Assembly (NCBI GenBank): GCA_034506395.1
Contig: JAPDPQ010000001.1
Span: 4,435 to 68,434, forward strand
Direction: 5' to 3'
Origin: Candidatus Zhuqueibacterota bacterium
GTDB taxonomy: Bacteria; Zhuqueibacterota; Zhuqueibacteria; Thermofontimicrobiales; Thermofontimicrobiaceae
DNA length: 64,000 nt
The notes below the pieces were generated by a model that made no database searches, was not told the DNA's origin, and saw only the letters and a program-made list of their open reading frames with translations. Made by a program: the position numbers and the translations under genes. Below, in pieces: positions 2,156-39,681 of this stretch; the stretch's first letter is position 1, and the number at the start of each line of letters is the position of its first letter.

Positions 2156-2294
2156 CTGTTCTAATATGCGTCCCAGCAGCTACGGACCAATCATTTTTTC
2201 GAGTGAAACTTAGCTCTCGAGATTGAGCATCAACAAAATATGTCTTGTTTTTTTCATGAAAATTTCTATATTTCCGTTAACAAAAAACGGAAAT

Positions 2295-2870
2295 ATGGAT
2301 ATGGAATTGACAGAACAAGAATTGATCCGTCGTGCAAAGCAAGGAGATCGGGCAGCTCAGGCTAAAATTGTAAAAGACCATGAGAAAATGGTCTATAATT
2401 TGGGTCTAAAATTATTGGGCAACCCTGACCAAGCAGAGGGCGTTTTGCAAGAGACCTTCCTCAAGGTATTGCAAGCGCTTCCCAAATTCGAGGAAAAATC
2501 TCAGCTCTCGACTTGGATCTATCGCATCGCGACCAATCAGGCGCTCATGCGATTGCGTTCTCGCAAACGTCGTTTTATTTCAATTGAGGAAAATCCAGAA
2601 TTTGAGGATAAAGATTACACGACCTTCGCTCAATCGTTGGATGCAACCCCACTGGATGACGTGCTGAATCAGGAATTGCGAGAAAAGATGGATCGAGCGA
2701 TTGAGCAATTGCCAGATAATTATAAAACAGTGTTCGTGATGAAGGATATCGAAGGGATGGCATTGAAGGAAATTGCAGAAATTTTAGACCTGTCTTTGCC
2801 TGCAGTCAAATCCAATCTGCACCGCGCCAGAGTTACTCTTCGAAATAAATTGGCTGAAATGTGGAACTGA
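2295..2870 (+). CDS. RNA polymerase sigma-70 factor, ECF (sigma-24) subfamily
   Basis: Region 2 (AEGVLQETFLKVLQALPKF...STWIYRIATNQALMRLR) and region 4 (YKTVFVMKDIEGMALKEIAEILDLSLPAVKSNLHRAR) motifs are present. Confidence 0.85.
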   Translation: MDMELTEQELIRRAKQGDRAAQAKIVKDHEKMVYNLGLKLLGNPDQAEGVLQETFLKVLQALPKFEEKSQLSTWIYRIATNQALMRLRSRKRRFISIEENPEFEDKDYTTFAQSLDATPLDDVLNQELREKMDRAIEQLPDNYKTVFVMKDIEGMALKEIAEILDLSLPAVKSNLHRARVTLRNKLAEMWN

Positions 2871-2880
2871 GGAATTTGCG

Positions 2881-3114
2881 ATGGAATGTTTTGAGTCTCT
2901 GGAAAAAATTTGTGAAGCGCTTGGAGAAGATATCGATAGCCCAATGTGCAAAGAGGTTGAGGAGCATTTGCGCAATTGCCCCCGCTGTTGCGCCCACGTC
3001 GATTCGGTCCGCAAGGTCGTTCGGCTTTATCGACAGATTGGCGATGCGGAGGTGCCTGTAGCCGTGGACGAACGATTGTGGAAAGTGCTCAATCTTTCAA
3101 AGCCACAAGACTGA
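2881..3114 (+). CDS. Zinc-dependent anti-sigma factor (ZAS family, ChrR/RsrA-like N-terminal domain)
   Basis: Starts 11 nt after the sigma gene. Contains the H-x3-C-x2-C motif (EEHLRNCPRCC) plus an upstream Cys. Small 77-aa soluble protein. Confidence 0.65.
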   Translation: MECFESLEKICEALGEDIDSPMCKEVEEHLRNCPRCCAHVDSVRKVVRLYRQIGDAEVPVAVDERLWKVLNLSKPQD

Positions 3115-3368: not shown

Positions 3369-3397
3369 TTGACAGATTGCCGATTATTTTGTATATT
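3369..3397 (+). promoter_or_regulatory. Sigma-70-like promoter candidate (TTGACA-N17-TATATT) about 70 nt upstream of the rpiB-deoC fusion gene
   Basis: TTGACA at 3369-3374, a 17-nt spacer, then TATATT at 3392-3397. The same hexamer pair and spacing recur upstream of rpsT. Confidence 0.4.
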
Positions 3398-3469
3398 ACC
3401 GCCGTTTTTAAAATGCATCGCGCATGTGAGAGATCAACCATGTAACAAACGAGAAAGATTCGGAATCAG

Positions 3470-4876
3470 ATGAGCACCCAGCCGGGAATTAAAATCCGAA
3501 AAATTGCTATCGGCGCCGACCATGCGGGATTTGAGCTCAAGGAGAAGCTCAAAAAATATCTTGCTGATCGAGGGCATCATCTTTTTGATTGTGGAACTTT
3601 CAGCACCGAATCCGTGGATTATCCGAAGATCGCCTTTCAGGTTGCACAATTGGTGAGCAGAGGCGAATATGAATTGGGAATCATGATCGACGGTGCGGGG
3701 ATTGGTTCGGCGATGGCAGCCAATAAGGTCCCCGGTATTCGAGCGGCTCTCTGTTACGATCTTTCGACCGCACGCAATAGTCGCGAGCACAACAACGCCA
3801 ATGTCCTCACTCTGGGGGGTGGGCTGATCGGTTTTGAATTGGCCAAACAGATCGTCGATACCTGGCTGGCATCAGAGTGCACAGTCGATCGACACCTGCG
3901 CCGAGTACAGATGATCCATGACATCGAACAAGGAAAATTCACTGTGAATCAGATAACGATGCCTCCAGGTCCCTCATCTGGGTTGGCAATTTCCGAGGAA
4001 GACGTTAAGAAAATCGTTTCGAGAGTCCAAACTTTATTACAGCAGCAGATGGGAACTGGTGCGATGTGGACATCCGCTAGTTGTCAAAATCCCACATGCA
4101 ATTCGTGCGGCCAATGTGCGAATAAGGCCCCTGATGCCGTTCGTCAATTTATTTCCATTGGTGCTGCGCGCATCTCTAATGCTCCAGGTGGCATCGGTGC
4201 CCCGCAGGACATCGCCAAATTTATTGACCACACGCTGCTCAAGCCAGAAGCTACGATTTCGGATATCGAACGGGTTTGTCAGGAGGCAGTGAAATATCAA
4301 TTTGCAGCGGTGTGTATTAATCCCTGCTATGTGAAATTGGCGCATGAATTGACACGTGGATCCAATGTAAAAGTTTGTAGCGTGGTTGGGTTTCCGCTCG
4401 GGGCAAGCATCACCGAGATTAAAGCCCTGGAGGCTCGGCGAGCGATTCGCGACGGGGCGAAGGAGATCGATATGGTAATCAACATCGGTGCACTCAAAAG
4501 CGACAATGATGAATTGGTGTTTCGGGACATCCGGACTGTGGTGGATGCTTGTGTGGATGGAAGCGCAATCTGCAAGGTTATCATTGAAGCAGCGCTCTTG
4601 ACCGATGAAGAGAAAGTGAGGGCGTGCGAGCTGGCAAAGCGGGCGCGAGCCCATTATGTGAAAACGTCGACGGGATTCGGCCCCGGCGGTGCGACTGCGC
4701 ATGACGTCGCGCTGATGCGACAGGTGGTGAGCGGCACACGAATGGGCGTGAAGGCTGCGGGCGGCATCCGATCGCTGGCAGACGCACAAAAGATGATCGA
4801 AGCGGGGGCCACTCGGATCGGCGCCAGCGCTGGCGTGAAAATCGTCCAAGAAGCAGCAAAGGTGGCAAATCCCTGA
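3470..4876 (+). CDS. Bifunctional fusion: ribose-5-phosphate isomerase B (RpiB/LacAB) N-terminal domain + deoxyribose-phosphate aldolase (DeoC/DERA) C-terminal domain, with a Cys-rich linker
   Basis: N-terminus [17 protein letters not shown]...[28 protein letters not shown] (RpiB). C-terminus [12 protein letters not shown]...[10 protein letters not shown]...VKTSTGFG...AGGIRS (DeoC, with the Schiff-base Lys region). The linker holds [20 protein letters not shown] and [12 protein letters not shown]. Confidence 0.85.
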
Positions 4877-5063
4877 TCGCCTCGGTCTCGTTCCCAACAC
4901 TTATCAGGTCACTATCGCTGCATCATCTTTTATTTTTTTATGCAAAAAATCGATGTTACATATAACTGAGAGCAAAACCGAACAAGATTAGTTATTGATG
5001 AGTCAGCCCATTTAAAATCCAAAATTCTAACAATGTTTTGAATTTGTTCACAAGGAGAGCTCT

Positions 5064-5693
5064 GTGGTTGACCTACGCGCTTATGTCTTTTTGGACAATC
5101 TTCAGCCGCAATACGCCGCCTTTTTGGGCACGGTGGCACAAGGGTTCCTGCCAATCGCCCACATGGCGTCGCTTTATGTCGAGATCTCCCCAGGGATCGA
5201 AATCAATCGTATCACGGATATCGCTTTGAAATCGACTCGGGTAACGCCGGGGATGCAAATTGTGGAACGCCTTTATGGTTTGCTTGAGATCCATTCTGAG
5301 TCTCAGGCGGACGTTCGGCAGGCTGGTCAGGCGATTTTGGACGCGTTGGGTTTAAAGGAAGAAGATCGCTGGAAGCCGAAGATTTACTCCAGCCAGGTGA
5401 TCCGACGAATTGATGACCATCAGACGCAATTGATTAATCGCATGCGCCACGGCAACATGATCATTCCGGGCCAGACATTGTATGTGATGGAAGTTGCCCC
5501 GGCAGCTTATGCCGCACTGGCAGCGAACGAAGCGGAAAAGGCCGCCGAAATTAATATCCTAGAGGTTCGAGCTTTTGGCAGTTTTGGACGCGTTTATCTG
5601 GGAGGAGAGGAACGCGATATCGACGTGGGGTGGCGCGCGGCTGTTCATGCCATTGAAAGCGTCACTGGCAAAATGTTTGAAGGAGCGTCTTAG
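5064..5693 (+). CDS. BMC shell protein, BMC-T with tandem circularly permuted BMC domains (PduB/EutL-like)
   Basis: Two repeats each end in a G-x-x-x-DV-x-x-A motif ([20 protein letters not shown] and [21 protein letters not shown]). GTG start follows an AAGGAGAG SD. Sits in the shell-gene cluster. Confidence 0.65.
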
Positions 5694-5916
5694 GTCGCTA
5701 TCCCTCTGCGCCAAAATATTTTATTGCTGATGCGTATCAACCCCATGGGCTTAAAGTTCTTCATCTTTCCATAATGAAAAAATAACGGACGCTTTTAAGG
5801 GAAGCTCATAAATTTTCCAACTTTTTTTCAGACTTCTGTGCAATGAGCCGATATCGATCAATCTCCTGTCACTGTTGAATAGGTAGGAGTCTATTTTATT
5901 TTAACAAGTCACAACT

Positions 5917-5945
5917 CAGGCATGCCCGCATTAACAGGCATGCCC
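5917..5945 (+). promoter_or_regulatory. Two copies of CAGGCATGCCC (each containing the palindrome GGCATGCC) 18 bp apart, upstream of the BMC-H gene; candidate operator
   Basis: Direct reading: 5917-5927 and 5935-5945. The pair is flanked by TTAACAAGT at ~5902 and ~5992. TTGACA at 6015 and an AGGAGG SD at 6050 follow. Confidence 0.35.
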
Positions 5946-6062
5946 CGATTTTGCAATTTATTTGAATTTTATGAAAGTCTCAGTTATTTAGTTAACAAGT
6001 TTAGGACAGCGCATTGACAAATTGGTTTAGAACATTTTACTGGTACTCAGGAGGAATGAAGC

Positions 6063-6383
6063 ATGGCCGAAGCTTTAGGAATGATTGAATGTCGTAGTTT
6101 TCCAGCAATGGTGGAAGCTGCAGATGCCATGGTTAAGGCTGCCAAGGTTGAGTTGGTCAGTTACGAGAAAACTGGGGGAGGATACGTCACTGCGATCATC
6201 CGTGGGGATGTTGCTGCGGTAAAGGCCGCTTGCGAAGCTGGACAAGCTGGTGCCGCCAAAGTGGGTGAGGTCGTTGCCGTGCATATTATCGCTCGGCCGC
6301 ACAGCAATGTGGACCTGGTATTGCCATTGGGCAGAAAGGAACAGGTAGCCGCAGAGCTGAAGAAAACCAAGCGCGATGAATAA
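6063..6383 (+). CDS. BMC shell protein BMC-H (PduA/EutM/CcmK family hexamer)
   Basis: [77 protein letters not shown] is the canonical Pfam00936 sequence. Confidence 0.95.
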
Positions 6384-6612
6384 TCAATAAAGGGCTGGAT
6401 AGAAGCCGCAAGTCAACGACGCTGCAAGTTGCTCTTGTTTGCTTTTAAAAATTTTTCAGCCAAGAGGCAAAACTATTTTTCCTTGCGTTAATAGCGGCTG
6501 AGAAAGAATTGAACTTCTGAAATAGCCCCTGATTCTGAATAGTTGGTAGCGAATAAGTTTGAAGCCATAAATTTGAGACAAATTGCTGCCAGAGTTATGA
6601 GCAGGAAAAGCT

Positions 6613-6912
6613 ATGGTATTAGCCAAAGTAATTGGGACCGTGGTCGCCACGCGAAAAGAAAAGAGCATGGAAGGGCTCAAATTCCTGCTTTTGCGACAGG
6701 TCGACCTCGATGGCAACGAGATTGGGGGTCATATCGTTGCTGCTGATGCTGTTGGTGCAGGTCTGGGCGAAATGGTGCTTTATGCCACTGGTAGCTCGGC
6801 TCGACAAACCGTAATGACTGATAAGCGGCCTTGCGATGCGGTCATTATGGCCATTGTGGATAACTGGGAAGTGAACGGACAGATCAAATACAAAAAAGGA
6901 CAACATGATTGA
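6613..6912 (+). CDS. BMC vertex protein BMC-P (EutN/PduN/CcmL family), copy 1
   Basis: [31 protein letters not shown]...[25 protein letters not shown] is a typical pentamer protein. 99 aa. Confidence 0.9.
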
Positions 6913-7027
6913 CCTGCTCCGCCGCCTAATATTTTCCATTAGCCGTGCAATGACAGATTGTTGAGATTTAAACTCCAATGAAACCGCAGGCTGATTTGGC
7001 ATTTAATGAAATAACAGGTAGCGCAAA

Positions 7028-7594
7028 TTGGATCGACCTTTTTTAATCGGCAAAAAGATCTATCTCCGACCAGTAGAGCCTGAGGATGCGGCATTTCTCG
7101 CTCGGGGGGAAAATCACCCAGCGGTGCGCGAGGCGTTATTTCTGGCATTCCCCGTGAGTATGGGAACTGAGCTGGAGAAGATCGAGCAATTCATCAAATC
7201 CAAAGAAGCAATTGTGCTGATCATTGTAGACCAGCAGACGAATCAACCAGTCGGCCAGACCGCATTCTTTCGCATCGATTTCGTCAGCCGAGCGGCCGTT
7301 TTTTATCTGGCAATCCTCGATCCGAGCCATTGGTCGAAGGGGTATGGCTCGGAGGCCACACAACTCATGGTTGATTACGCATTCGAGACGCTCAATCTCA
7401 ATCGCATCCAGCTTCATGTCTGCGCCGAAAATACCCCTGCCATTCGGATTTATGAGCGCGCTGGATTCAAAAAAGAGGGAGTTTTACGACAGGCTATGTT
7501 TCGCAACGGGGCTTATGTGGATTTCTGGGTGATGGGCATCTTGCGGAGCGATTGGTCGGTGCGATCTCAAAATAGCCAAGTCTTTTCGGCATAA
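7028..7594 (+). CDS. GNAT family N-acetyltransferase (RimJ/RimL-like), embedded in the BMC operon
   Basis: IYLRPVEPEDAAFLA...QPVGQTAFF...WSKGYGSEATQLMVDYAFETLNLNRIQLHVCAENTPAIRIYERAGFKKEG is the acetyl-CoA-binding motif A region. Apparent TTG start. Confidence 0.75.
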   Translation: MDRPFLIGKKIYLRPVEPEDAAFLARGENHPAVREALFLAFPVSMGTELEKIEQFIKSKEAIVLIIVDQQTNQPVGQTAFFRIDFVSRAAVFYLAILDPSHWSKGYGSEATQLMVDYAFETLNLNRIQLHVCAENTPAIRIYERAGFKKEGVLRQAMFRNGAYVDFWVMGILRSDWSVRSQNSQVFSA

Positions 7595-7741
7595 GCCAAT
7601 CAAATCCAGCCATAAATTCATCGACACAATAGGTATTTTTCGCCGGTGGTTGAATGATCTTAATAGTTGATTAGAGACTTTCGTTCACATACAACAATTA
7701 TTTGGTTTATCATGCGATCACTTTAACGCTGGAGCGAACCC

Positions 7742-9187
7742 TTGTCTTTCCTTGGTGAAAATCAGATCGAAACGATCGCCCAAAAAATTGTGGAGATCAT
7801 TATTGGCAAGAGCTCAGTGCCGGACGCGGGTATAAGGAGTAGCTCGGTCTTTCGTTCAGGCTGGTTGGGGATTTTCCCCACCATCGATGAAGCCGTGACC
7901 GCGACTTCGATCGCTCAGCGGCAATTGACCAGCATGACGCTCCGAAAGCGAGATGAGATCATCGCCAGTATCCGAGCCATGATGCTGGAACATGCGCGGG
8001 AGTTGGCCGAATTCGCCGTTGCAGAGACAGGGTTGGGCCGCGTCGAAGATAAGATTGCCAAAAATAAATTGGTGAGCGAGAAGACGCCTGGGACAGAAGA
8101 TCTCTATCCGATTGCCCGATCTGGAGACCACGGGCTAAGCTTGTTCGAGCCAGCGCCTTATGGCGTTATTGGCGCCATCACGCCAATTACCAACCCCACT
8201 TCTACGATCATCTGCAACACGATCGGAATGGTTGCAGCGGGCAACGGGGTGGTTTTCAACGTTCATCCTGGGGCAAAAAACACCTCAATCCAAAATATCC
8301 ATTTAATAAACCAGGCTATTATCCAAGCTGGTGGGCCCGTGAATTTGGTCAGTGGCATAACCGAGCCAACAATTGCAACGGCACAGCAATTGATGCGCCA
8401 TCCTGGGATACGAATTTTGGTCATCACAGGCGGAGGTGCTGTGGTCCGAGAAGCGATGAACAGTGGCAAGCGAGCCATTTGCGCTGGGCCCGGCAATCCA
8501 CCTGTGGTAGTTGATGAAACCGCTGATTTGGAGCGCGCTGGCGAGTTCATCGTGAAAGGCGCATCGTTCGACAATAACATCATCTGTGTGGATGAAAAGG
8601 AACTCATCGTGGTTGAGGCAGTGGCAGACCAATTGCTCAGGATCATGCAGAACAAAGGGGCGATCTTGCTAAAACCCCAGCTTCTCCCCCAGCTCGAGCA
8701 ATTATTGTTCGAGAAAACGAACGGGCCGGCCAAGCCAGGGATGATAAATAAAAGCTTGATCGGCAAAAATGCCAATTTGATCCTCTCGAAATTGGGGCTA
8801 TCGGTCGATGATCGGATTCGATTGGCCGTCATCGAGGTCGATCGCACCCATCCGCTGGTCTGGACCGAACAGATGATGCCAATTTTGCCGATGGTGCGGG
8901 TGGCGAATGCGGATGAGGCAATCGATTTGGCAAAACAGGTAGAAGGTGGAAATTATCATACTGCGGTTATGTATTCCCGAAATCTGGACAATCTCAGCCG
9001 GATGGCCCGGGAAATTAACACGACAATTTTTGTGAAAAACGGTCCCGCCTATGCTGGATTAGGATTTGGCGGCGAGGGATACACTTCTTTTTCTATCGCC
9101 AGCCCAACGGGAGAGGGCTTAACAGGTCCGCGCAGTTTCTCAAGAGAGCGGCGTTGCGTGTTGGTAGATCATTTTCGGATCGTTTAA
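7742..9187 (+). CDS. CoA-acylating aldehyde dehydrogenase (PduP/EutE family) with an N-terminal encapsulation-peptide-like helix
   Basis: Full-length similarity to EutE/PduP, with the catalytic Cys context NNIICVDEKELIV. N-terminal QIETIAQKIVEIIIG amphipathic helix, then a Ser/Gly-rich linker before the ALDH core. TTG start with a GGAGCG SD. Confidence 0.9.
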   Translation: MSFLGENQIETIAQKIVEIIIGKSSVPDAGIRSSSVFRSGWLGIFPTIDEAVTATSIAQRQLTSMTLRKRDEIIASIRAMMLEHARELAEFAVAETGLGRVEDKIAKNKLVSEKTPGTEDLYPIARSGDHGLSLFEPAPYGVIGAITPITNPTSTIICNTIGMVAAGNGVVFNVHPGAKNTSIQNIHLINQAIIQAGGPVNLVSGITEPTIATAQQLMRHPGIRILVITGGGAVVREAMNSGKRAICAGPGNPPVVVDETADLERAGEFIVKGASFDNNIICVDEKELIVVEAVADQLLRIMQNKGAILLKPQLLPQLEQLLFEKTNGPAKPGMINKSLIGKNANLILSKLGLSVDDRIRLAVIEVDRTHPLVWTEQMMPILPMVRVANADEAIDLAKQVEGGNYHTAVMYSRNLDNLSRMAREINTTIFVKNGPAYAGLGFGGEGYTSFSIASPTGEGLTGPRSFSRERRCVLVDHFRIV

Positions 9188-9188
9188 T

Positions 9189-9812
9189 ATGAAACTATAC
9201 CCTGCAATTGCGCTGATCGAGTTTAGTAGCATTGCCACCGGAGTAATTGCTGGCGATGCGATGATCAAAAGAGCGCCGATTTCCATGTTAAAGGCTGGCA
9301 CGGTCAGCCGAGGAAAATATCTGGTGATGATTGCTGGTAGCACAGCAGCGGTCGAGGAATCTTATCGGGCTGGTCTAAGCGTCGGCGAAGCTGCGGTCAT
9401 CGATAAGGTTTTTCTGCCTGATGTGCATCCGCAGGTGCTCGACGCTATCCTTGGAGCAAGAAAAAAAATCAGCTCCGAGGCACTCGGGCTGATCGAAACC
9501 GCATCTATTGCCGCGACGATCGCCGCCGCTGATGCTGGCATCAAAGGGGCGATGGTCGATATCATCGAAATTCGGCTGGGCGACGCATTGGGCGGCAAGG
9601 CATTTGTGATGATGAACGGAACAGTCCACGACGTCACCGCTGCAGTTACCATTGGGCTGAAAGCGATCTCCAATGAAGCGCTTTGGCGCAATCATATCAT
9701 CATCCCATCGTTGCATCACGAAATGGCCCGTCAGATCGACCGTTCGAGCCGATTTGCCCTGGTAGAATATCAAAAATTAGCTGGAGACGAGAGCGAACAT
9801 GTTACTGGGTAA
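9189..9812 (+). CDS. BMC shell protein BMC-T, tandem canonical BMC domains (PduT-like)
   Basis: Two BMC domains (AIALIEFSSIATGVIAGDAMIKRA... and EALGLIETASIAATIAAADAGIKGA...). ATG lies 1 nt after the AldDH stop. No Fe-S-ligand Cys seen in domain 1. Confidence 0.85.
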   Translation: MKLYPAIALIEFSSIATGVIAGDAMIKRAPISMLKAGTVSRGKYLVMIAGSTAAVEESYRAGLSVGEAAVIDKVFLPDVHPQVLDAILGARKKISSEALGLIETASIAATIAAADAGIKGAMVDIIEIRLGDALGGKAFVMMNGTVHDVTAAVTIGLKAISNEALWRNHIIIPSLHHEMARQIDRSSRFALVEYQKLAGDESEHVTG

Positions 9813-10089
9813 AGTGATCGGCACTGTTACGCCCTGCGTGGTTTACCCCGGACTCGAAGGCGTTCCGCTTCTGCTGGTTCAGCCGCTGAGTAAAAACTCC
9901 AAAGCGGTCGGCAAGCCCATTGTCGCCTGCGATGCCACCCGAATGGCTGGTCCAGGAGAACTGATCTATTACGAGGGCGGCCGCGAGGCAGCGCTGGCAT
10001 TAGATCCCTGGTTCGTCCCAGTGGATCACACCATCATTGGCATTGTGGATGGCGTCCATCTAATCGATGAAAGCTCTCAGTCCGAGTGA
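9799..10089 (+). CDS. BMC vertex protein BMC-P, copy 2
   Basis: MLLGKVIGTVTPCVVYPGLEGVPLLLVQPL...IVACDATRMAGPGELIYYEGG. Overlaps the BMC-T stop by 14 nt. Confidence 0.85.
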   Translation: MLLGKVIGTVTPCVVYPGLEGVPLLLVQPLSKNSKAVGKPIVACDATRMAGPGELIYYEGGREAALALDPWFVPVDHTIIGIVDGVHLIDESSQSE

Positions 10090-10319
10090 AATTCAACTCT
10101 TTCAACCTCGCAGACAGCAAGTTCCTGCTGCAAAATGTCAAAAAGAGGCTATATTTTCACGCCGGCGAAGGCAGGTATCTCAACATTCGGTTGACCTAAC
10201 GATCAGTTTAGAAGGAGGTTCCTGTGCGCAAGCCAGCGGACAGAAATGAGAGGGCTCAACCATAGCGCTTTTTGCAACAGAAACTCGCTAGCTAATTTGT
10301 TAGAATTGGAGAAAAAGTT

Positions 10320-10592
10320 GTGATTATCGGCAAAGTCGCTGGAGAAATCTACTCCACGATCAACCACAGTTTCTATGATCAAAAAAAACTGCTGATCGTG
10401 GACAAATTGGACCTAACTGGAACGCCCACAGGCGACTATTTGATCGCAGTAGATTCCGTCGATGCTGGGCTCGGTGAAACGGTATTGGTCATTGATGAAG
10501 GCAATTCGGCCCGACAGGTAGTAAGCGATCCCAATGCGCCAATCCGCTCAATCATTATCGGGATCATCGATGCCGTGCGCATTGAGAGGTGA
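10320..10592 (+). CDS. BMC vertex protein BMC-P, copy 3 (GTG start)
   Basis: IIGKVAGEIYSTINHSFYDQKKLLIVDKLD...LIAVDSVDAGLGETVLVIDEGNSAR. 90 aa. Confidence 0.8.
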   Translation: MIIGKVAGEIYSTINHSFYDQKKLLIVDKLDLTGTPTGDYLIAVDSVDAGLGETVLVIDEGNSARQVVSDPNAPIRSIIIGIIDAVRIER

Positions 10593-10840
10593 CTTCAATT
10601 CAAGAGCGAGATAGCAGCGTTCATCCTCCGTTCGCCGTTCCTTCGGTCCTCGCTCAAGCCAGTCGCTTCAGGTTGTCAAATTTATATCGATGCAAAGGAT
10701 GAAATATTTGACGAGCTCAAAGAGATTTGCTTTTACGATTTTGGGCCCTATTTGCATTCTTTCAGAAAAGCGTTATATTTAATTGATCGTTATTTAATCT
10801 TATTTCGAATTGCTAATCGAACCAAGCGTAGAAAGATTAT

Positions 10841-11527
10841 ATGGCGAATGAATGGCAATTGCGACGGGAGATCGTCGCGATTGGCAAAAAGGCTTACGAA
10901 CGCGGGCTGGTGACGGCCACAGATGGGAATATCAGCGTGCGAGTCATGGGAGATCGTTTTCTGATCACACCGAGCGGCAGTTGCCTCGGAGAATTGGCAC
11001 CCGAACAATTGGTTTATGTCGATTTTGAAGGCAAGACATTATCTGGCGGTAAGCCAACTGGAGAGCTGGCCATGCACCTGGCTGCTTATCGAGAGCGGCC
11101 AGACATCCATGCCGTCTTGCATGCACACCCACCAATTACCACGGGCTTTACCATCGCTGGCGAATCACTGGCGCAATGCGTCATCCCCGAGGTTGTGGTG
11201 ATCTTCGGGACCATCCCTACTACGGAATATGCCACTATTTCAACTGAAGAGGGTGCCAAAGTCATTCGGGAATTGATCCGCGACCATGATGCTTTGATAT
11301 TGGATCGGCATGGGACAATTACAGTGGGAAAAACCCTCATCGACGCATATCGCAAACTCGAGAAGGTCGAATATGCCGCCCAGGTCACCCTGGTTGCCAA
11401 ACAATTGGGCAAAGTGAAAACCTTATCGCGTGAACAAATTCAAAAATTGGAAGCCGTCAGGCAAAAATATGGCTATCAGGGCCGAAAATCGCTATGCGAG
11501 GCATGTGGCCTCTGCAATATTTCATGA
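10841..11527 (+). CDS. Class II aldolase/adducin-family protein (FucA/RhaD/AraD/MtnB-like) with a C-terminal extension
   Basis: ATDGNISVRVMGDRFLITPSG...KPTGELAMHLAAYRERPDIHAVLHAHPP...LDRHGTITVG includes the Zn-binding His triad. The C-terminus adds SREQIQKLEAVRQKY...CEACGLC. Confidence 0.85.
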   Translation: MANEWQLRREIVAIGKKAYERGLVTATDGNISVRVMGDRFLITPSGSCLGELAPEQLVYVDFEGKTLSGGKPTGELAMHLAAYRERPDIHAVLHAHPPITTGFTIAGESLAQCVIPEVVVIFGTIPTTEYATISTEEGAKVIRELIRDHDALILDRHGTITVGKTLIDAYRKLEKVEYAAQVTLVAKQLGKVKTLSREQIQKLEAVRQKYGYQGRKSLCEACGLCNIS

Positions 11528-11694
11528 AATCAGTCAGCGCTGACGACTTCATCCAATTGAATTAAAGCATCGACAAATTGCCGTGATCGCCAATTGCGCG
11601 AATTGACCCAATTAACCCAATTTTGCTATTCGCCAAATTAGCTTTATTCGTTTGAATTCGCTGTTTTATTCTATATCCCATCGCGCCAATCCAG

Positions 11695-12588
11695 ATGAAG
11701 GAGAACAAATTTTTGACTGCAAATCAGCAAGAACCGATCCAATCCACATACGACTGTATCCCCTGTGCTATCGGGAGCCTGATCACTCTATTTAAAAAAG
11801 GACTGGTTTCAGAAAGGGATCAGGAAATCGCCATGCGAGCATTATTGCGTTATCTCAGCACCATTGATTTCCATCAATCCCCTCCCCAAATCGGTCAACA
11901 GATGCAACGGATCATTCGACACGTGCTCAATAATCCTGATCCGTATTTAGAAATCAAACAGCAATTCAATCGCTTGCTTCTCGATCATTACGTTGAATTA
12001 AAAGCATGGGTGGACCAGGCGGCAGATCCATTTCAGATGGCATTGCGATTGTCCATCGCTGGAAACGTGATCGATTTCGGTCCGAATCAACGCTTTGATG
12101 TCCACCAAACATTGGAACGGGCAAAGACTATTGTCCTGGCGATCGATGATTCAGAGCCTTTGCGCCAGGCCATCTCGAAAGCAACGCTACTTCTCTATTT
12201 GGGAGATAATGCTGGCGAAATCGTGTTGGATCGTATTTTCCTGGAAACGATTAACCATCCCAATGTCTATTTTGCTGTTCGCAGTGCGCCCATCATCAAT
12301 GACGCATTGCTGGAAGACGCAATCATGGTAGGAATCGACAAAATTGCCCATGTCATCACCAATGGGGATGATGCGCCTGGGACAATCTTAGAGAACACCT
12401 CAGCCCAATTTAAGACAATTTTTGACCAAGCGGATCTGATCATTTCAAAAGGCCAGGGCAATTATGAGGGTCTTAGCTGCGTTGATAAAAATATCTTCTT
12501 TTTGCTAATGACCAAATGCGAGCATGTCGCTAATCATCTTGGAGTAAAAAAAGGTGATTTTGTGGTGAAACAAGGACAAGGTTGTTGA
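11695..12588 (+). CDS. DUF89 / ARMT1-like damage-control sugar-phosphate phosphatase family protein
   Basis: 297 aa with characteristic segments SIAGNVIDFG, LGDNAGEIVLD and KGQGNYEGL. Confidence 0.65.
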   Translation: MKENKFLTANQQEPIQSTYDCIPCAIGSLITLFKKGLVSERDQEIAMRALLRYLSTIDFHQSPPQIGQQMQRIIRHVLNNPDPYLEIKQQFNRLLLDHYVELKAWVDQAADPFQMALRLSIAGNVIDFGPNQRFDVHQTLERAKTIVLAIDDSEPLRQAISKATLLLYLGDNAGEIVLDRIFLETINHPNVYFAVRSAPIINDALLEDAIMVGIDKIAHVITNGDDAPGTILENTSAQFKTIFDQADLIISKGQGNYEGLSCVDKNIFFLLMTKCEHVANHLGVKKGDFVVKQGQGC

Positions 12589-12795
12589 GTTAAACTGTGT
12601 TAAAATTCTTGATGATCATTGCATGAGGGTTCTACAATTGAATCCATTCGAATTTTGCTCGTCGCTGCTAAAAAAGTTTAGGAATCCGTTTTGTCTCATT
12701 CATCGATGTACGCATTGATTTTATTCATAAATTAACAGATGAGCTGTTGAAAATAGCTTTTTGTATTTTGCAGAAATTCCTCAAATGTACAAGCA

Positions 12796-13623
12796 ATGGA
12801 GAAACCCATGTATCCAGTTCTTTTTAGATTTGGTGCCTTTGAGCTCCGCAGCTACGGTCTCGCTCTGGCGCTGAGCGTGGCGCTGGGAATTTGGATTTCT
12901 TTGAAGCGAGCGCCTCGCTATGGAGTCAAAAAAGAAACGATTCTCGATCTGGCTGTGATCATTATGCTGGCAGCGATCATTGGCAGTCGATTCTGGTATG
13001 TGATCTATCATATTGATGAATTTCGCGGGCATTGGTTCGATACCATCAACCCGTTTCAGGGTGGCACGATCGGGATTGCTGGTTTATCCATGGTCGGCGG
13101 GGTGGTTTTGGCAATTCTTTCGGCGCTGGTCTACGCGATGGTCAAGAAATTGGACTTTCTGAAGTTGGGCGATACCATCGCCCCAGTTTTTTTACTTGGC
13201 GAAGGGATCGTCCGCGCTGGTGGCTGCTTTCTGAACGGCTGTTGTTTCGGTCGCCCTACCGATAGCCCGCTGGGCATTGTTTTTCCTCCAGAGGGCGTGG
13301 CTGGTTCGCTGTTCCCTCACACGCATCTTTGGCCTGCCCAACTGTTCGCCTCTGCATTGGGTTTCATTGGATTTGCCCTCGCCCTCTGGCTTGATCGAAA
13401 ATCCAAATTCAAAGGATTTACCTTTTGGCTGGTGTTCGGGTATTATGCAATCGATCGGTTCATCGTAGATCAATTTCGCTATTATGAATCACCTCAAGTA
13501 TTAGCCACATTAGGGCCGATCACTTTTAACGCGAATCATTTGTTGCTGGCCGGATTGTTTATTTTCAGCGTCTTTTTCTTCATTCGAGGCTGGCGCCAGC
13601 AGCAGAGGTCAGAGAGAAAATAG
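12796..13623 (+). CDS. lgt: Prolipoprotein diacylglyceryl transferase
   Basis: Polytopic membrane protein with an Lgt-like GGCFLNGCCFGRPT and an HPTQLYE-like HTHLWPAQLFAS segment. Confidence 0.7.
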   Translation: MEKPMYPVLFRFGAFELRSYGLALALSVALGIWISLKRAPRYGVKKETILDLAVIIMLAAIIGSRFWYVIYHIDEFRGHWFDTINPFQGGTIGIAGLSMVGGVVLAILSALVYAMVKKLDFLKLGDTIAPVFLLGEGIVRAGGCFLNGCCFGRPTDSPLGIVFPPEGVAGSLFPHTHLWPAQLFASALGFIGFALALWLDRKSKFKGFTFWLVFGYYAIDRFIVDQFRYYESPQVLATLGPITFNANHLLLAGLFIFSVFFFIRGWRQQQRSERK

Positions 13624-14628
13624 ATTGATGTGTTCCTGAGTTCGCTCGACTTGATGGAACGCATCCTGTTGTGACCTAACACAAAATCAAAAAAGTTCTT
13701 TCGATGAATTGAATGGGGGACAAGATGAATTGAAATGGCTCAAGGCTGCAACTTTCTTAATTTTCGCTTGGGCACCTTCTTCTTGTACCCTCTTTCTGAC
13801 ATCTTCAATTTACGATCGAATGATTTCTTTCATGAACGCAATGGCAAAATTAGTAGCTCTGAAAAATTTAAATTGCATCCCTGGCATGATCTATGCCCCA
13901 AAGAAAGCTTCATCCTCATCAAATGGCCATTGTCTTCAATTTAATATTGATCGATCATTTTGACTGAGCATTCAATCGTAAAAAGTGATATTCAAAAAGA
14001 ATTTTTCTGCCTGCATAATCTATCTGTGAAAATCAATTTATTGAGCATCTATTGGGTTTTGATCGTCACGACCCATTTGAAAATTTCTAATGAAGCAGCC
14101 TTATTTATCGCCCACAGCTTTTATGGCCCGAACATCAAAATTTGGAATTTAACCTTATTGGCTTATTTCTTGGCTGTTTGAAGATTTTGATCTCCATCCT
14201 CGATATGATAGTCAGCTTTCGAAAACAAAAATAAGGTGCTTTGATTTCACCCGACATGCTATAGCTTCTCCATGTTGCGGATTTGCTTTATCCAGCCACT
14301 AACAATTTTAGGCAGCCAAAGCGCATTTTATCCTATTTCTGGGGAAATCAGCCGAGCAGAGGATTCTGAGAGTAGACACTTTTGGCTCTAGATCCGATTA
14401 GCTTGAAACATTGGGGCGAATGGATGAGCTTCATTGATTTTGATAAATAGCATGCTGAGAATTGCATCCATTGACATGGAATCAACATTGAAAACAATTT
14501 CTGCTGAAGATCTCTCCTCCTTAAAAATTTCAATTTTTCTCGCCCACGGCTGAGTCAAATTATGTGGATATGTGAAGATATGTTTCAATCCTACAAAGCA
14601 GGTGCTAATAATTAGCTGGCAACCAAAG

Positions 14629-15504
14629 CTACATTTTGCGGCATACAATGCAAACATACGGAATGGTGAGGTGCAAAGCGCCGTTCATATGAGCAATGCG
14701 ATTCAATTTTTGTTCAACAATTTCAAACACAGGCTTTCGATCTTCTGGAGAAAGGATCTTTTCCCAACTTTCTAAAAACGCAAGCTTGATGAAGAAATGA
14801 CCGAACATGGCACTGCCATCCAAAAAACTCATCGAAAAATGATCTTCATGAATTTTCTTGATGCGAAAACCTGCAGTGGTGATCATTTTCAGCGTCTGAT
14901 GAAGGGGTCTGCGTTTTTCATGAATATGTTTGTGCATCTCGTCAATTTCCCGCCGCTTTCCCATCTCGCTTAAGGTTTGTTCGAAAATTTGATAAAACTC
15001 CTTCATGGTTCCTGGAAGGTTGACAGTAAGAATAAATTGGGCGTGAGGCTGGCTCACCCGTGCACATTCTGCCAAAACAGCCTCAGGATCGGACACATTA
15101 TTGATCCCATTATTGGACACGATCAAATGAAAAAAGAGAGCGGGAAAAGGCAAATGTTCTCCCAGTGCTTGGATTAAAGCGACATTGGATAGGGCTTGAC
15201 CGTGAGCCTTTAATTGAGCTCGCTTTAGAGCGGCGAACCATGGGTCAATCCCATAAATTTGACATGAGGCACCCATCCGATTGGCCAATTCGATCAATGG
15301 GAAGCCCGCTCCACAGCCGAGATCCAGTACATTCATCTTCGGCTTCATCAAAACGCTATCTAAAAGTCTCAATCCGAATGGCGCAGACCACAATGGGAGA
15401 TCATCCAGAATCGAAACGAGCAATGGATCGTTTGAATCGAACTTCTGACTGACATAATTGTGCATGATTGAGATCCCGTGGTTCGTTGATTTTTTGAATA
15501 TCAC
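14629..15504 (-). CDS. Class I SAM-dependent methyltransferase
   Basis: VLDLGCGAGFPLIELA (motif I) and IVSNNGINNV (post I/II) are present. Confidence 0.7.
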   Translation of the reverse strand: MIFKKSTNHGISIMHNYVSQKFDSNDPLLVSILDDLPLWSAPFGLRLLDSVLMKPKMNVLDLGCGAGFPLIELANRMGASCQIYGIDPWFAALKRAQLKAHGQALSNVALIQALGEHLPFPALFFHLIVSNNGINNVSDPEAVLAECARVSQPHAQFILTVNLPGTMKEFYQIFEQTLSEMGKRREIDEMHKHIHEKRRPLHQTLKMITTAGFRIKKIHEDHFSMSFLDGSAMFGHFFIKLAFLESWEKILSPEDRKPVFEIVEQKLNRIAHMNGALHLTIPYVCIVCRKM

Positions 15505-36933: not shown

Positions 36934-38229
36934 TTAGTGAATGGAGCCCAATATCAATCTTGGGACCTGACATGGTGCTTCATCAATTTCAATTGCCGAT
37001 CGTAAAGCGTGTTCAATTTGCTCAGCATTCATCACTTTTGAGTGATAGATTTCAGCCAAAGGCTCACCGCGTTCCACGCGATCACCGACTTTATGGCACA
37101 AAACGATCCCCGCGGTGGGATCAATGGGATCTCCAATTTTTGCCCGACCAGCGCCGAGTTCCATGGACAACAAGCCGATCTTCAGCGCATTTATCTCGTG
37201 AACATAACCTGATTTGGTGCTGAGCACGGTTTCATGATATTGGCTGAAGGGATATCGAGCAGGATTTTCAACGACTGAAATATCACCTCCCTGGGCAGTT
37301 ACCATCTCAATAAATTTATTATAGGCAGCTCCATTGGCTAATAAAAATTGCAATTGATCAGAATGATGAATTGGCTTTCCCGCCAATCGCAGCATCTCTG
37401 CCGTGAGCGCCAAAGTAATTTCAACTAAGTCATTTGGGCCACCACCATGCAATGTATCAATTGCTTCTTTAACCTCCAGCCAATTCCCAACCGCATAACC
37501 TAAAGGCTGATCCATGGCCGTCATCATGGCCGTAGTGGGCAGGCCGAAGCTTTTTGCAATCGAGATGAATGTCTCGGCTAATTGGTTCGCTCGGTCAAAT
37601 GAGCTAAAAAATGCTCCACGACCAGTTTTAACATCCAACACCAGGGCCTTTGCACCTTCTGCGATCTTTTTGCTCAATATGCTGGCAACAACTAAAGGGA
37701 TCGATGGCACAGTTCCTGTGCGATCGCGTAACGCATAAATCTTTTTGTCCGCCGGGACAATCTCATCGGTTTGCCCAATCATGGCAAGGCCGATTTTTTC
37801 AACTTGTTGAACGAACTCTGTCAAGCTCAACTGGGTTCGAAAGCCGGGGATCGATTCTAATTTGTCCAATGTCCCACCAGAATGGCCCAATCCACGACCA
37901 GACATCATGGGAACTGCTACCCCTGCCGCGGCGGCCAATGGGGCCAAGACCAATGACACCTTATCACCGACCCCTCCAGTGCTGTGCTTATCGACAGGCA
38001 TCCGATCTAAATGGCTGAAGTCTACCGTCCGGCCCGATTGAACCATGAGCTTGGTCAATGCTTGAGTCTCTTCTATGCTCATGCCCTGAAAATAAATGGC
38101 CATCAATAAAGCGGCCATTTGGTAGTCTGGGACCAAACCAGCGACATAGCCATCGATTATTGATTTCAACTCTGCCTCTGAAAGGTGAGATCCGTCTCGC
38201 TTTTTCACAATCAATTGTTCAATATTCAT
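36934..38229 (-). CDS. deoA: Thymidine / pyrimidine-nucleoside phosphorylase
   Basis: IIVKKRDG..LS..E..SII..GYV...KHSTGGVGDKVSLVLAPLAAA...MMSGRGLGHSGGTLDKLESIPGF. Confidence 0.9.
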   Translation of the reverse strand: MNIEQLIVKKRDGSHLSEAELKSIIDGYVAGLVPDYQMAALLMAIYFQGMSIEETQALTKLMVQSGRTVDFSHLDRMPVDKHSTGGVGDKVSLVLAPLAAAAGVAVPMMSGRGLGHSGGTLDKLESIPGFRTQLSLTEFVQQVEKIGLAMIGQTDEIVPADKKIYALRDRTGTVPSIPLVVASILSKKIAEGAKALVLDVKTGRGAFFSSFDRANQLAETFISIAKSFGLPTTAMMTAMDQPLGYAVGNWLEVKEAIDTLHGGGPNDLVEITLALTAEMLRLAGKPIHHSDQLQFLLANGAAYNKFIEMVTAQGGDISVVENPARYPFSQYHETVLSTKSGYVHEINALKIGLLSMELGAGRAKIGDPIDPTAGIVLCHKVGDRVERGEPLAEIYHSKVMNAEQIEHALRSAIEIDEAPCQVPRLILGSIH

Positions 38230-38319
38230 CGTTCCTCTTCCTTTTTCCAAAAAACAAAGAAGCAATCAAACAACGATTGCTTCTTTAATTTTGTTTTCAT
38301 TCTATAGCTCTATTTCGTG

Positions 38320-39681
38320 TCAACTAAGAGCGCTCAATTGCTTAATCTCCTCAACAAATTGATAAGCCAGTGCATTGGCTTGGTCCATGGTTTTCGCCTC
38401 AGCGTAGATTCGGATAATTGGCTCTGTATTGGACGGTCGAATTTGCACCCAGCGATCGGGCCATAGGATCTTCAAACCGTCCGTCAGATCGAGACGCTGG
38501 TTATTGTATTTATTGGTCATCGTCTTCAATAACTCGCCAATATTCACATCGGCCAATTCAATGCGACTCTTAGCGATCACATATTGCGGCAAAGATCGTT
38601 GCAATTCGCCAATAGAGCCCCCAAATTCAGCCAATTGCTGCAAAGTTAAGGCAATTCCCACTGGTGCATCTCGGCCTAAATGAAGCTCCGGCAAGATAAC
38701 TCCTCCGTTTCCTTCCCCACCGATCACCGCCTTCACTTCCTTCATCTTTTTTGCGACATGAATTTCCCCAACTTTGGTTCGAAACACCTCAGCGCCATAT
38801 TTGGCAGCAATTTCGTCGATCGCCTGGGTGACCGAGACATTGACCGCCACTGGCCCGTGTCTTTTTTGAAGCACATAATTCACAGCTAACGCCAAAGTAT
38901 ACTCCTCGCCCAGGGGATTGCCGTGCTCATCGACAATGGCGAGCCGATCGACATCCGGATCCACTGCAAAGCCCAGATCGGCACCAGTGCGCTTCACTGT
39001 CTGGCATAATTCTTTGAGATTCTCTGGCAATGGTTCTGGTGGATGCGAAAATAACCCAGTTGGATCCTCATTGATAAATATCACATCGCATCCCAGGCGT
39101 TGCAATAATTGGGGTAAAATGGTCCCACCTGCTCCATTCACACAATCTACGACAACCCTAAATTTCCGGGCAGCTATCTTCTCTGGTGAAATCAAATCTA
39201 ATCGCAAAATGGCATCGATATGATGCCGAATAGCGGTGTTATTAAGTTCGATCTTTCCAATTTGATCCCAAGGGACAAAGCGAAATTCTGCTTCGTCGGC
39301 AAGCTGAATGACTTTCTTGCCTTGTATCTCATCGAGGAACATGCCAGAGGCATCGATCAATTTCAACGCGTTCCATTCGATTGGATTATGGCTGGCTGTG
39401 ATGGCAATGCCTCCACGCGCCTTAAAATGCTCCACCGCCAATTCTACCGTTGGCGTTGGGCAAATGCCGATATCAATTACATCGCATCCCATGGCCGTCA
39501 GGCCAGAGAGCACCGCATGCTTGACCATGGGTCCAGTGATTCGGGAGTCTCTTCCTACCACCACCTTTCCTCCACCCAAATAAGCCCCGAATGCCTGGGC
39601 GTATCGGAGGACCACCTCTGGGGTTAACCCATCTCCAACCACGCCTCTTATTCCCGAGATGCTAACCATTAATTTCGCCAC
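38320..39681 (-). CDS. Alpha-D-phosphohexomutase family protein (PGM/PMM/GlmM-like); candidate phosphopentomutase by context
   Basis: SGIRGVVG...GIAITASHNP (phosphoserine loop)...FAVDPDVDRLAIVDEHGN (metal loop)...GGEGNGG. Confidence 0.8.
   Translation of the reverse strand: MAKLMVSISGIRGVVGDGLTPEVVLRYAQAFGAYLGGGKVVVGRDSRITGPMVKHAVLSGLTAMGCDVIDIGICPTPTVELAVEHFKARGGIAITASHNPIEWNALKLIDASGMFLDEIQGKKVIQLADEAEFRFVPWDQIGKIELNNTAIRHHIDAILRLDLISPEKIAARKFRVVVDCVNGAGGTILPQLLQRLGCDVIFINEDPTGLFSHPPEPLPENLKELCQTVKRTGADLGFAVDPDVDRLAIVDEHGNPLGEEYTLALAVNYVLQKRHGPVAVNVSVTQAIDEIAAKYGAEVFRTKVGEIHVAKKMKEVKAVIGGEGNGGVILPELHLGRDAPVGIALTLQQLAEFGGSIGELQRSLPQYVIAKSRIELADVNIGELLKTMTNKYNNQRLDLTDGLKILWPDRWVQIRPSNTEPIIRIYAEAKTMDQANALAYQFVEEIKQLSALS

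Follow-up and report, generated by a model that had tools for sequence, protein, structure and literature searches.

A predicted SPU3-type microcompartment operon with an accessory class II aldolase in candidate division KSB1

Introduction

Is a microcompartment locus that encodes two different aldolases and one CoA-acylating aldehyde dehydrogenase (AldDH), with no visible enzyme for recycling CoA or NAD+, a new kind of bacterial organelle? The question is raised by eleven genes in a 64,000-nucleotide stretch of DNA (contig JAPDPQ010000001.1, positions 4,435 to 68,434; hereafter the window) from a member of candidate division KSB1. The original prediction, made from the letters of the window, assigned this bacterial microcompartment (BMC) locus to the SPU types, called its composition unusual and proposed that a deoxyribose-phosphate aldolase (DERA) and a class II aldolase in the style of PVM loci both supply the dehydrogenase. 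Profile searches and comparison with related loci indicate that the locus is a genuine microcompartment operon and a further representative of the published SPU3 type, in an aldolase-bearing variant; it is no new kind of system. One operon, from about position 3369 to 11527, probably encodes an SPU3-type metabolosome for the catabolism of deoxyribose 5-phosphate that exchanges its cofactors with the cytosol, with the class II aldolase as accessory cargo and a GNAT acetyltransferase as a passenger.

Results

Shell proteins and locus type

The eleven genes all lie on the + strand and, according to the listing of open reading frames (ORFs) and the profile searches, at the positions first given for them (Table 1). 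A gene call was accepted when the protein exceeded the curated threshold in at least one profile library (Pfam or NCBIfam), and all eleven calls, shell and enzyme alike, withstood this check. The product of the first shell gene falls just below the Pfam BMC threshold (24.2 versus 24.5) and exceeds that of the NCBIfam CcmP model NF053796 (343.7 versus 340). It also matches the solved CcmP structures 5LSR and 4HT5 over its full length (286 bits), with the ERLYGL segment aligned identically. As the NF053796 threshold was passed and the CcmP structures were matched, the protein is identified as a permuted double-stacking BMC-T, designated BMC-T(dp). The likeness to CcmP of beta-carboxysomes extends to the gating Glu-Arg pair, whereas the context here is that of a catabolic metabolosome.

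The second trimer protein, BMC-T(s), can be aligned over its full length with PduT homologues; the site that holds the 4Fe-4S cluster in PduT is, in contrast, occupied here by serine. The translation contains no cysteine at all, the Ser standing opposite the pore Cys in the alignment to 3NWG, a PduT homologue (GTVSRGKY versus KPVCPGKY), and there is no PduS partner. The three BMC-P proteins are divergent (~30-33% pairwise identity), with the genes at 9799 and 10320 adjacent and that at 6613 apart from them. The shell gene set is complete, with one BMC-H, three distinct BMC-P, the gated BMC-T(dp) and a BMC-T(s) that is free of cysteine.

This set corresponds to the SPU3 shell of Sutter 2021, for which a single BMC-H, three BMC-P as a triplet, a CcmP-like BMC-T(dp) and a BMC-T(s) are described (PMC8217296). 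The published triplet has two adjacent members, from the grey and orange clades, and a third from the green clade (Sutter 2021, PMC8217296), and by position two of the three BMC-P genes in the window are likewise adjacent. The SPU3 BMC-T(s) has neither a PduS partner nor a pore cysteine (Sutter 2021, PMC8217296), and the same is true of the BMC-T(s) in the window. In Supplementary Data 2 of the same survey the only SPU3 enzymes are AldDH, PF01791 and PF02502 (Sutter 2021, PMC8217296). For the last two, 12 loci with a fusion are reported, in which PF02502 comes first and the domains may be separated by an encapsulation peptide (Sutter 2021, PMC8217296), and Dwyer, Sutter and Kerfeld 2024 give 20 fused SPU3 loci (PMC11585597). 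The locus in the window shares this enzyme core, AldDH and a PF02502-PF01791 fusion in which PF02502 is the N-terminal domain and a helix links it to the second. It also shares the absence of a phosphotransacylase (PTAC) and the replacement of the catalytic Cys by Asp in the ribose-5-phosphate isomerase (RPI) domain, and candidate division KSB1 is among the SPU3 host phyla listed (Sutter 2021, PMC8217296). The LepA protein encoded in the window has 100% identity to one from a candidate division KSB1 metagenome-assembled genome.

The assignment to SPU was therefore correct, since a locus with DERA, RpiB and AldDH fits the published SPU3. The claim of an unusual composition did not hold, as the shell set, the gene order, the fusion and the lack of a PTAC are all those of published SPU3. 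It had been foreseen that the order might already be catalogued as a standard SPU subtype with PduL nearby; the order is indeed catalogued, but SPU3 is without a nearby PduL. Four features distinguish the locus from SPU3 as published: a ninth gene, for a class II aldolase, which is not in the published SPU3 text, a GNAT gene between the first BMC-P gene and that for AldDH, long intergenic spacers, and a CxxCGxC motif on both aldolase cargo proteins. The aldolase and the GNAT are thus additional to the published minimal enzyme set.

Signature enzymes

The two domains of the fusion protein occupy one ORF, LacAB_rpiB at residues 12-149 (183 bits) and DeoC at residues 250-460. The DERA domain scores 281 bits with TIGR00126, against a cut-off of 117, and 266 bits with solved DERA structures. 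Asp334, Lys369 and Lys398 of this domain are invariant across 52 homologues, and we take them to be the counterparts of Asp102, Lys167 and Lys201 of E. coli DERA, as equated by eye. The catalytic Asp/Lys/Lys set of DERA is accordingly predicted to be intact in the fusion protein. In the RpiB domain Asp74 (in MIDGAGIG) is nearly invariant among the same 52 homologues, and would replace the catalytic Cys66 of E. coli RpiB, the residue having been placed by our own reading. The presence of Asp in place of the catalytic Cys has been described for all SPU RPIs (Dwyer 2024, PMC11585597).

An internal amphipathic helix lies at about residues 174-193 of the fusion, and the AlphaFold2 model, built on a 52-sequence alignment, has a helix at residues 176-193. 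Both enzyme domains are modelled with confidence, while residues 193-246 are disordered (predicted local confidence, pLDDT, <50). The protein is widely represented, with at least 120 cluster representatives at 59% identity or more.

AldDH carries an N-terminal extension of ~45 residues, the Pfam domain starting at residue 48. Within it, residues 5-22 are predicted to form an amphipathic helix (hydrophobic moment 0.43), and the consensus is conserved across 45 SPU3 AldDHs. These data uphold the proposal that the enzyme has an N-terminal extension of the encapsulation-peptide type.

Related loci and the class II aldolase

A scan with the fusion protein of one genome per species retrieved at least 80 loci from many phyla, with no more than 61% identity among the matches listed. 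The ORFs of these loci were labelled with the window proteins. In most of the complete loci among L001-L088 the order is fusion, BMC-T(dp), BMC-H, BMC-P, AldDH, BMC-T(s), BMC-P, BMC-P. This eight-gene order is nearly universal among the loci retrieved by the scan and is found in Planctomycetota, Acidobacteriota, Marinimicrobia, Calditrichota, Verrucomicrobiota, Chloroflexota and others. Neighbours that were not labelled by window proteins, taken as representatives of 20 recurrent clusters, are regulators of the SorC/DeoR, winged-helix and GntR types together with unrelated genes; no PF06130 or other phosphotransacylase was found among the representatives scanned. In the complete genome CP070762.1 (L083) the operon, at 10001-14334, ends after a truncated GNAT gene and is followed by unrelated genes on the opposite strand; its AldDH half may lie elsewhere or have been lost.

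The class II aldolase gene follows the two BMC-P genes in L001, L010, L032, L057, L081, L082 and L084-L088. It stands directly after the last BMC-P gene in 7 of the 37 complete loci among the matches listed, a rough figure because all loci were retrieved with the fusion protein, whose relatives have at most 61% identity among those matches. Three distant homologues of the aldolase were picked, which have 59-66% identity and include one encoded in a complete Phycisphaerales genome, and each is encoded by the ninth gene of the same operon. As the ninth-gene position recurs, including in these three distant cases, the aldolase is a regular component of a common SPU3 variant. It is predicted to be the conserved accessory cargo of a widespread nine-gene form of SPU3. 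Class II aldolases have been noted at low occurrence only, in some SPU types (Dwyer 2024, PMC11585597).

The combination of adjacent BMC-P genes with a PF00596 aldolase directly behind them, as seen here, is itself a known module, described in the main HO type II loci, in the HO type I and MIC3 satellite loci, in ACI and in SPU5 (Sutter 2021, PMC8217296). SPU5 is without RPI, whereas here the module forms the tail of an SPU3 operon that keeps DERA and RPI. The aldolases of SPU5, ACI and MUF have a C-terminal amphipathic helix, as do the longer homologues of the window protein. The window copy, in contrast, ends directly after a cysteine motif, without the terminal helix, of the encapsulation-peptide type, that the longer homologues carry.

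The best solved relatives of the aldolase are 6VOP/6VOQ and 6BTD (~100 bits), followed by FucA (80 bits). Assignment of a substrate by NCBIfam equivalogs was attempted and abandoned, as all scores were below the cut-off; the solved structures give no assignment either.

These data bear on the hybrid model of the original prediction, in which DERA, releasing acetaldehyde, and the class II aldolase, releasing dihydroxyacetone phosphate and lactaldehyde or a similar aldehyde, both feed the one AldDH. In addition to its conservation as ninth gene in many SPU3 operons, the aldolase retains the FucA-type metal and acid/base residues, as judged by eye from the sequence, and its longer homologues end in an amphipathic helix that resembles an encapsulation peptide. 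Moreover 6BTD, among its best relatives, is an enzyme that we take to be a 5-deoxyribulose-1-phosphate aldolase releasing acetaldehyde. However, encapsulation of the window copy, which is without the helix, is only putative, no equivalog of the family is scored above cut-off, and the operon encodes neither a kinase nor an isomerase by which a ketose 1-phosphate would be formed.

The PVM part of the model fares worst. The class II aldolase, the acylating AldDH and the BMC-P triplet are common to PVM and this locus. [quoted passage not shown] A PTAC is implied for PVM by the description of MUF2 in Supplementary Data 2 (Sutter 2021, PMC8217296), and none is present in the window. PVM loci, in addition, have neither DERA nor RPI, both of which occur here. 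By its lack of a PTAC, its two BMC-T genes and its KSB1 host the locus falls outside PVM, and the aldolase, described at first as PVM-style, belongs to a clade that travels with SPU3 operons as a recurrent ninth gene, with no sign of PVM ancestry. A second, aldolase-derived supply of aldehyde to AldDH is thus a tentative possibility, less probable than an SPU3 metabolosome in which DERA feeds the dehydrogenase and the class II aldolase is accessory.

Cofactor recycling

Pfam scans of the non-overlapping ORFs of at least 90 residues in the 64-kb window detected no PduL (PF06130), Pta (PF01515), Ack (PF00871) or iron-type alcohol dehydrogenase (PF00465) and no EutJ-like or PduS-like protein. This agrees with the original observation that genes for a phosphotransacylase (PduL), acetate kinase, alcohol dehydrogenase and EutJ-like protein are all missing from the 64 kb. 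Internal PTAC, alcohol dehydrogenase and PduS, which belong to the canonical metabolosome core, are thus not encoded in the window. As there is no PTAC, alcohol dehydrogenase, PduS or cluster-bearing BMC-T, CoA and NAD+ would need to be exchanged with the cytosol. SPU types that lack a PTAC typically encode a BMC-T(dp), a candidate exit for acetyl-CoA (Dwyer 2024, PMC11585597). Since pta, ack, adh and acs have been reported across all clades of the host phylum (PMC11683472), completion of the pathway in the cytosol is plausible. The puzzle of CoA and NAD+ recycling, which had been presented as unexplained, is therefore real but is already recognised and common to SPU3, rather than peculiar to this locus. 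On the comparison made here it is a property of the whole catalogued subtype, with a published working answer that is itself still hypothetical.

The cofactors could instead be recycled inside the shell by a phosphotransacylase of the Pta or PduL type and an alcohol dehydrogenase that are encoded elsewhere in the genome, as at satellite loci. Such loci are common among BMCs, EUT1 uses a PTAC of the housekeeping type, and pta, ack and adh genes are among those reported in all clades of the phylum (PMC11683472). However, SPU3 is described as a type in which satellite loci are uncommon, and no PTAC is listed for it (Sutter 2021, PMC8217296); nor does a PTAC lie near any related locus examined. 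The absence of a PTAC, moreover, correlates with the presence of a BMC-T(dp) (Dwyer 2024, PMC11585597), which favours exchange over internal recycling. Recycling within the shell by remotely encoded enzymes is therefore unlikely.

A further proposal assigns the regeneration of free CoA to the GNAT, which would replace the phosphotransacylase by transferring the acetyl group to an acceptor such as an amine or a protein N-terminus. The gene lies between those for the first BMC-P and AldDH in the window, L081, L082 and L085, and persists as a fragment in L083. An Acetyltransf_3 GNAT thus occurs inside the SPU3 operon of a KSB1 subclade and also in that of a second lineage, Ardenticatenales (Chloroflexi), where in L057 an unrelated member (14872-15438) is tightly packed between the BMC-T(s) and BMC-P genes of an operon with a nearby gene for a class II aldolase. 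The similarity of the two GNATs amounts to only 33 bits and their operon positions differ, which looks like independent recruitment and hints that members of this family may have been drawn into SPU3 operons repeatedly. However, the gene is missing from most SPU3 loci, including the KSB1 locus L084 and the three distant nine-gene operons, and no extension of the amphipathic encapsulation-peptide type was recognised on the protein by eye. A catabolic flux would, moreover, call for an acetyl acceptor in stoichiometric amounts, of which there is no sign. In relatives the operon spacers gather unrelated passengers, among them toxin-antitoxin genes and a gene for an aspartic protease. Regeneration of CoA by the GNAT is accordingly very improbable, and the protein is best regarded as a lineage-specific passenger in the operon.

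Least credible of all is a compartment that condenses, in which DERA and perhaps the class II aldolase would fix toxic acetaldehyde onto triose phosphates and need no recycling, an idea similar to one reportedly proposed for Atribacteria compartments: aldolases are reversible and the missing PTAC and alcohol dehydrogenase would be accounted for, but AldDH with its targeting extension, universal in these loci, would be left without a role, the neighbouring genes for nucleoside phosphorylase and cytidine deaminase indicate catabolism, and the activity measured for SPU DERA is the cleavage of deoxyribose 5-phosphate.

The DUF89 gene, which the original description had interleaved with shell genes, lies 3' of the operon. 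Among the related loci it occurs downstream only in L081 and L082, the two closest relatives, with a methyltransferase gene between it and the aldolase, and is absent from L084-L088. DUF89 is therefore probably a neighbour rather than a component.

Transcription of the operon

The predicted promoter upstream of the first gene lies in a block, ATTC-CTTGACA...TATTTTGTATATTA, that does not vary between the window and L081, L082 and L085, while its flanks have diverged. In the spacers between the BMC-T(dp) and BMC-H genes and between the GNAT and AldDH genes, aligned to three relatives, no conserved internal promoter was found, only the ribosome-binding sites being kept. The operon is read as a single transcription unit because one upstream promoter is invariant and neither of the two aligned spacers holds a conserved internal promoter. 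The BMC-H gene is preceded by a strong Shine-Dalgarno site, AGGAGGAA, which four relatives have without change although the spacer is otherwise not conserved. Spacers in the operon are long (119-373 nt), AT-rich and unconserved, in contrast to the tightly packed loci of other phyla. A 14-nt repeat that contains TTGACA is present in three copies. Searches with Rfam detected only a tRNA, elsewhere in the window, and no RNA element in the operon spacers.

The spacers of KSB1 relatives are occupied by small genes of toxin-antitoxin systems (NTP_transf_2/HepT, RelB-like) or by a gene for an aspartic protease (Table 1). Relics of toxin-antitoxin genes were also sought in the spacers of the window, where none was detectable.

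Genes for an extracytoplasmic function (ECF) sigma factor and a small anti-sigma factor of the zinc type directly precede the operon. This arrangement is limited to the close clade, being shared by the window with L081, L082 and L085 and not with L083 or L084. The anti-sigma factor, of 77 residues, contains an H-x3-C-x2-C motif, and its RsrA-like match is weak. Control by the ECF sigma factor was considered as the main model and dropped, the conserved operon promoter being sigma-70-like.

A cysteine motif on two cargo proteins

Directly after its internal helix the fusion protein carries C205-x4-C210-x2-C213-G-x-C216 (positions 4082-4117), and 71 of 120 close homologues, together with a few loci of other phyla, have a motif of the form C-x(3-5)-C-x2-C-x2-C. 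The class II aldolase ends in LCEACGLC, with C-x2-C-G-x-C at residues 221-227 (11503-11523). Here CxxCxxC is present in 81 of 120 homologues and is followed, in 33 of these 81, by an amphipathic helix of the targeting type. The spacing C-x2-C-G-x-C is that of ferredoxin-type cluster sites. The AlphaFold2 model was inspected for a four-cysteine knuckle in the fusion protein, and the stretch, with pLDDT <50, carries no information on the motif. A Cys motif on microcompartment aldolases was found neither in a literature text search nor in two SPU papers (PMC8217296, PMC11585597), and the word "cysteine" in the text of Dwyer 2024 refers to the RPI active site only (PMC11585597). The motifs might bind an Fe-S cluster or another metal and serve as a module for cargo assembly or redox chemistry, a suggestion that we regard as speculative and rather improbable.

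Nucleoside catabolism and other neighbouring genes

In several other genomes the SPU3 operon is followed directly by genes for pyrimidine-nucleoside phosphorylase and cytidine deaminase. These neighbours therefore support the published view that deoxyribose 5-phosphate derived from nucleosides is consumed. In the window a pyrimidine-nucleoside phosphorylase gene adjoins one for a mutase of the PGM/PMM family. From this pairing, the mutase may act as a phosphopentomutase and the two enzymes may supply deoxyribose 5-phosphate.

Two further genes lie outside these subjects (Table 1). The first encodes a glycyl radical enzyme, and no radical-SAM activase was found among the window ORFs scanned. 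The second encodes a subtilase of 1510 residues, whose weak, sub-threshold match to the Por/T9SS sorting domain would fit an origin in the FCB superphylum.

Table 1. Coordinates, strand and supporting evidence of the predicted features (window numbering, except for the last four rows, which use the numbering of the related loci)
Feature	Position	Strand	Evidence
Fusion of RpiB-like and deoxyribose-phosphate aldolase domains, SPU signature cargo	3470..4876	+	profile searches
CcmP-like permuted double-stacking BMC-T(dp), Glu68-Arg69 gating pair	5064..5693	+	NF053796, CcmP structures
BMC-H, sole hexamer gene	6063..6383	+	Pfam BMC 100 bits
BMC-P paralogue 1	6613..6912	+	EutN_CcmL 101 bits
GNAT acetyltransferase, Acetyltransf_3, RimJ/RimL/SpeG-like	7028..7594	+	profile searches
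CoA-acylating aldehyde dehydrogenase, EutE/PduP type	7742..9187	+	PRK15398 659 bits vs 403
PduT-like tandem BMC-T(s), two BMC domains, cysteine-free	9189..9812	+	Pfam BMC
BMC-P paralogue 2, 14-nt overlap with end of BMC-T(s) gene	9799..10089	+	EutN_CcmL 66 bits
BMC-P paralogue 3	10320..10592	+	EutN_CcmL 84 bits
Class II aldolase (FucA family, metal-dependent), last operon gene	10841..11527	+	Aldolase_II 170 bits
DUF89/ARMT1 damage-control phosphatase	11695..12588	+	ARMT1-like_dom 214 bits
Sigma-70-type promoter, TTGACA-17 nt-TATATT, ~70 nt upstream of first gene	3369..3397	+	11/12 consensus positions
ECF sigma factor (2223-2870) and small zinc-type anti-sigma factor (2881-3114)	2223..3114	+	family profiles
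Pyrimidine-nucleoside phosphorylase	36934-38265	-	TIGR02644 548 bits
PGM/PMM-family mutase, adjoining phosphorylase	38320-39681	-	TIGR03990 (archaeal-type GlmM) 558 bits
Glycyl radical enzyme	49225-51588	+	trans-4-hydroxy-L-proline dehydratase model, 1321 bits vs 1100
Subtilase	52917-57449	-	weak, sub-threshold match to Por/T9SS C-terminal sorting domain
Spacer passenger, L083	11523-11738		
Spacer passenger, L084	11415-12549		
Spacer passenger, L085	11453-11641		
Spacer passenger, L085	13336-13716		

Discussion

The evidence favours an SPU3-type metabolosome whose operation can be outlined as follows. Deoxyribose 5-phosphate from the breakdown of nucleosides would enter the shell, where DERA would cleave it, with glyceraldehyde 3-phosphate plus acetaldehyde as the products, and AldDH would oxidise the trapped acetaldehyde to acetyl-CoA. 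Exchange of CoA and NAD+ with the cytosol would follow a route that is likely to be the gated pore of BMC-T(dp), and cytosolic enzymes would complete the pathway.

Several points weigh against this account. The passage of CoA and NAD(H) through the BMC-T(dp) pore is a published hypothesis, not a result of the present analysis, and the search for a PTAC and an alcohol dehydrogenase covers the 64-kb window, so an encapsulation-tagged copy at a satellite locus would lie beyond its scope. An SPU RPI has been found to have negligible ribose-5-phosphate isomerase activity (Dwyer 2024, PMC11585597), which bears on the role of the RpiB half of the fusion. The substrate of the class II aldolase is not readable from its sequence, as OtnC-like, DrdA-like and FucA-like relatives score similarly. 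Finally, the long unconserved spacers leave room for internal regulation that went undetected.

Few bacterial organelles are as widespread as the SPU compartments, which are thought to enable feeding on DNA debris. Within this group the nine-gene, aldolase-bearing variant is common and strictly ordered across phyla, and the GNAT and DUF89 proteins should not be counted as SPU3 components. The handling of CoA and NAD+ in SPU subtypes that lack a PTAC is a question already recognised. The locus described here is a clean example from KSB1 and has a defined promoter, which would be of use for the expression of SPU3 shells. The cysteine motif common to two cargo enzymes is a testable candidate for metal binding and possibly a new detail of these compartments; if it does bind metal, cargo packing or electron handling in SPU3, which has neither PduS nor PTAC, would involve a component that has not yet been described.

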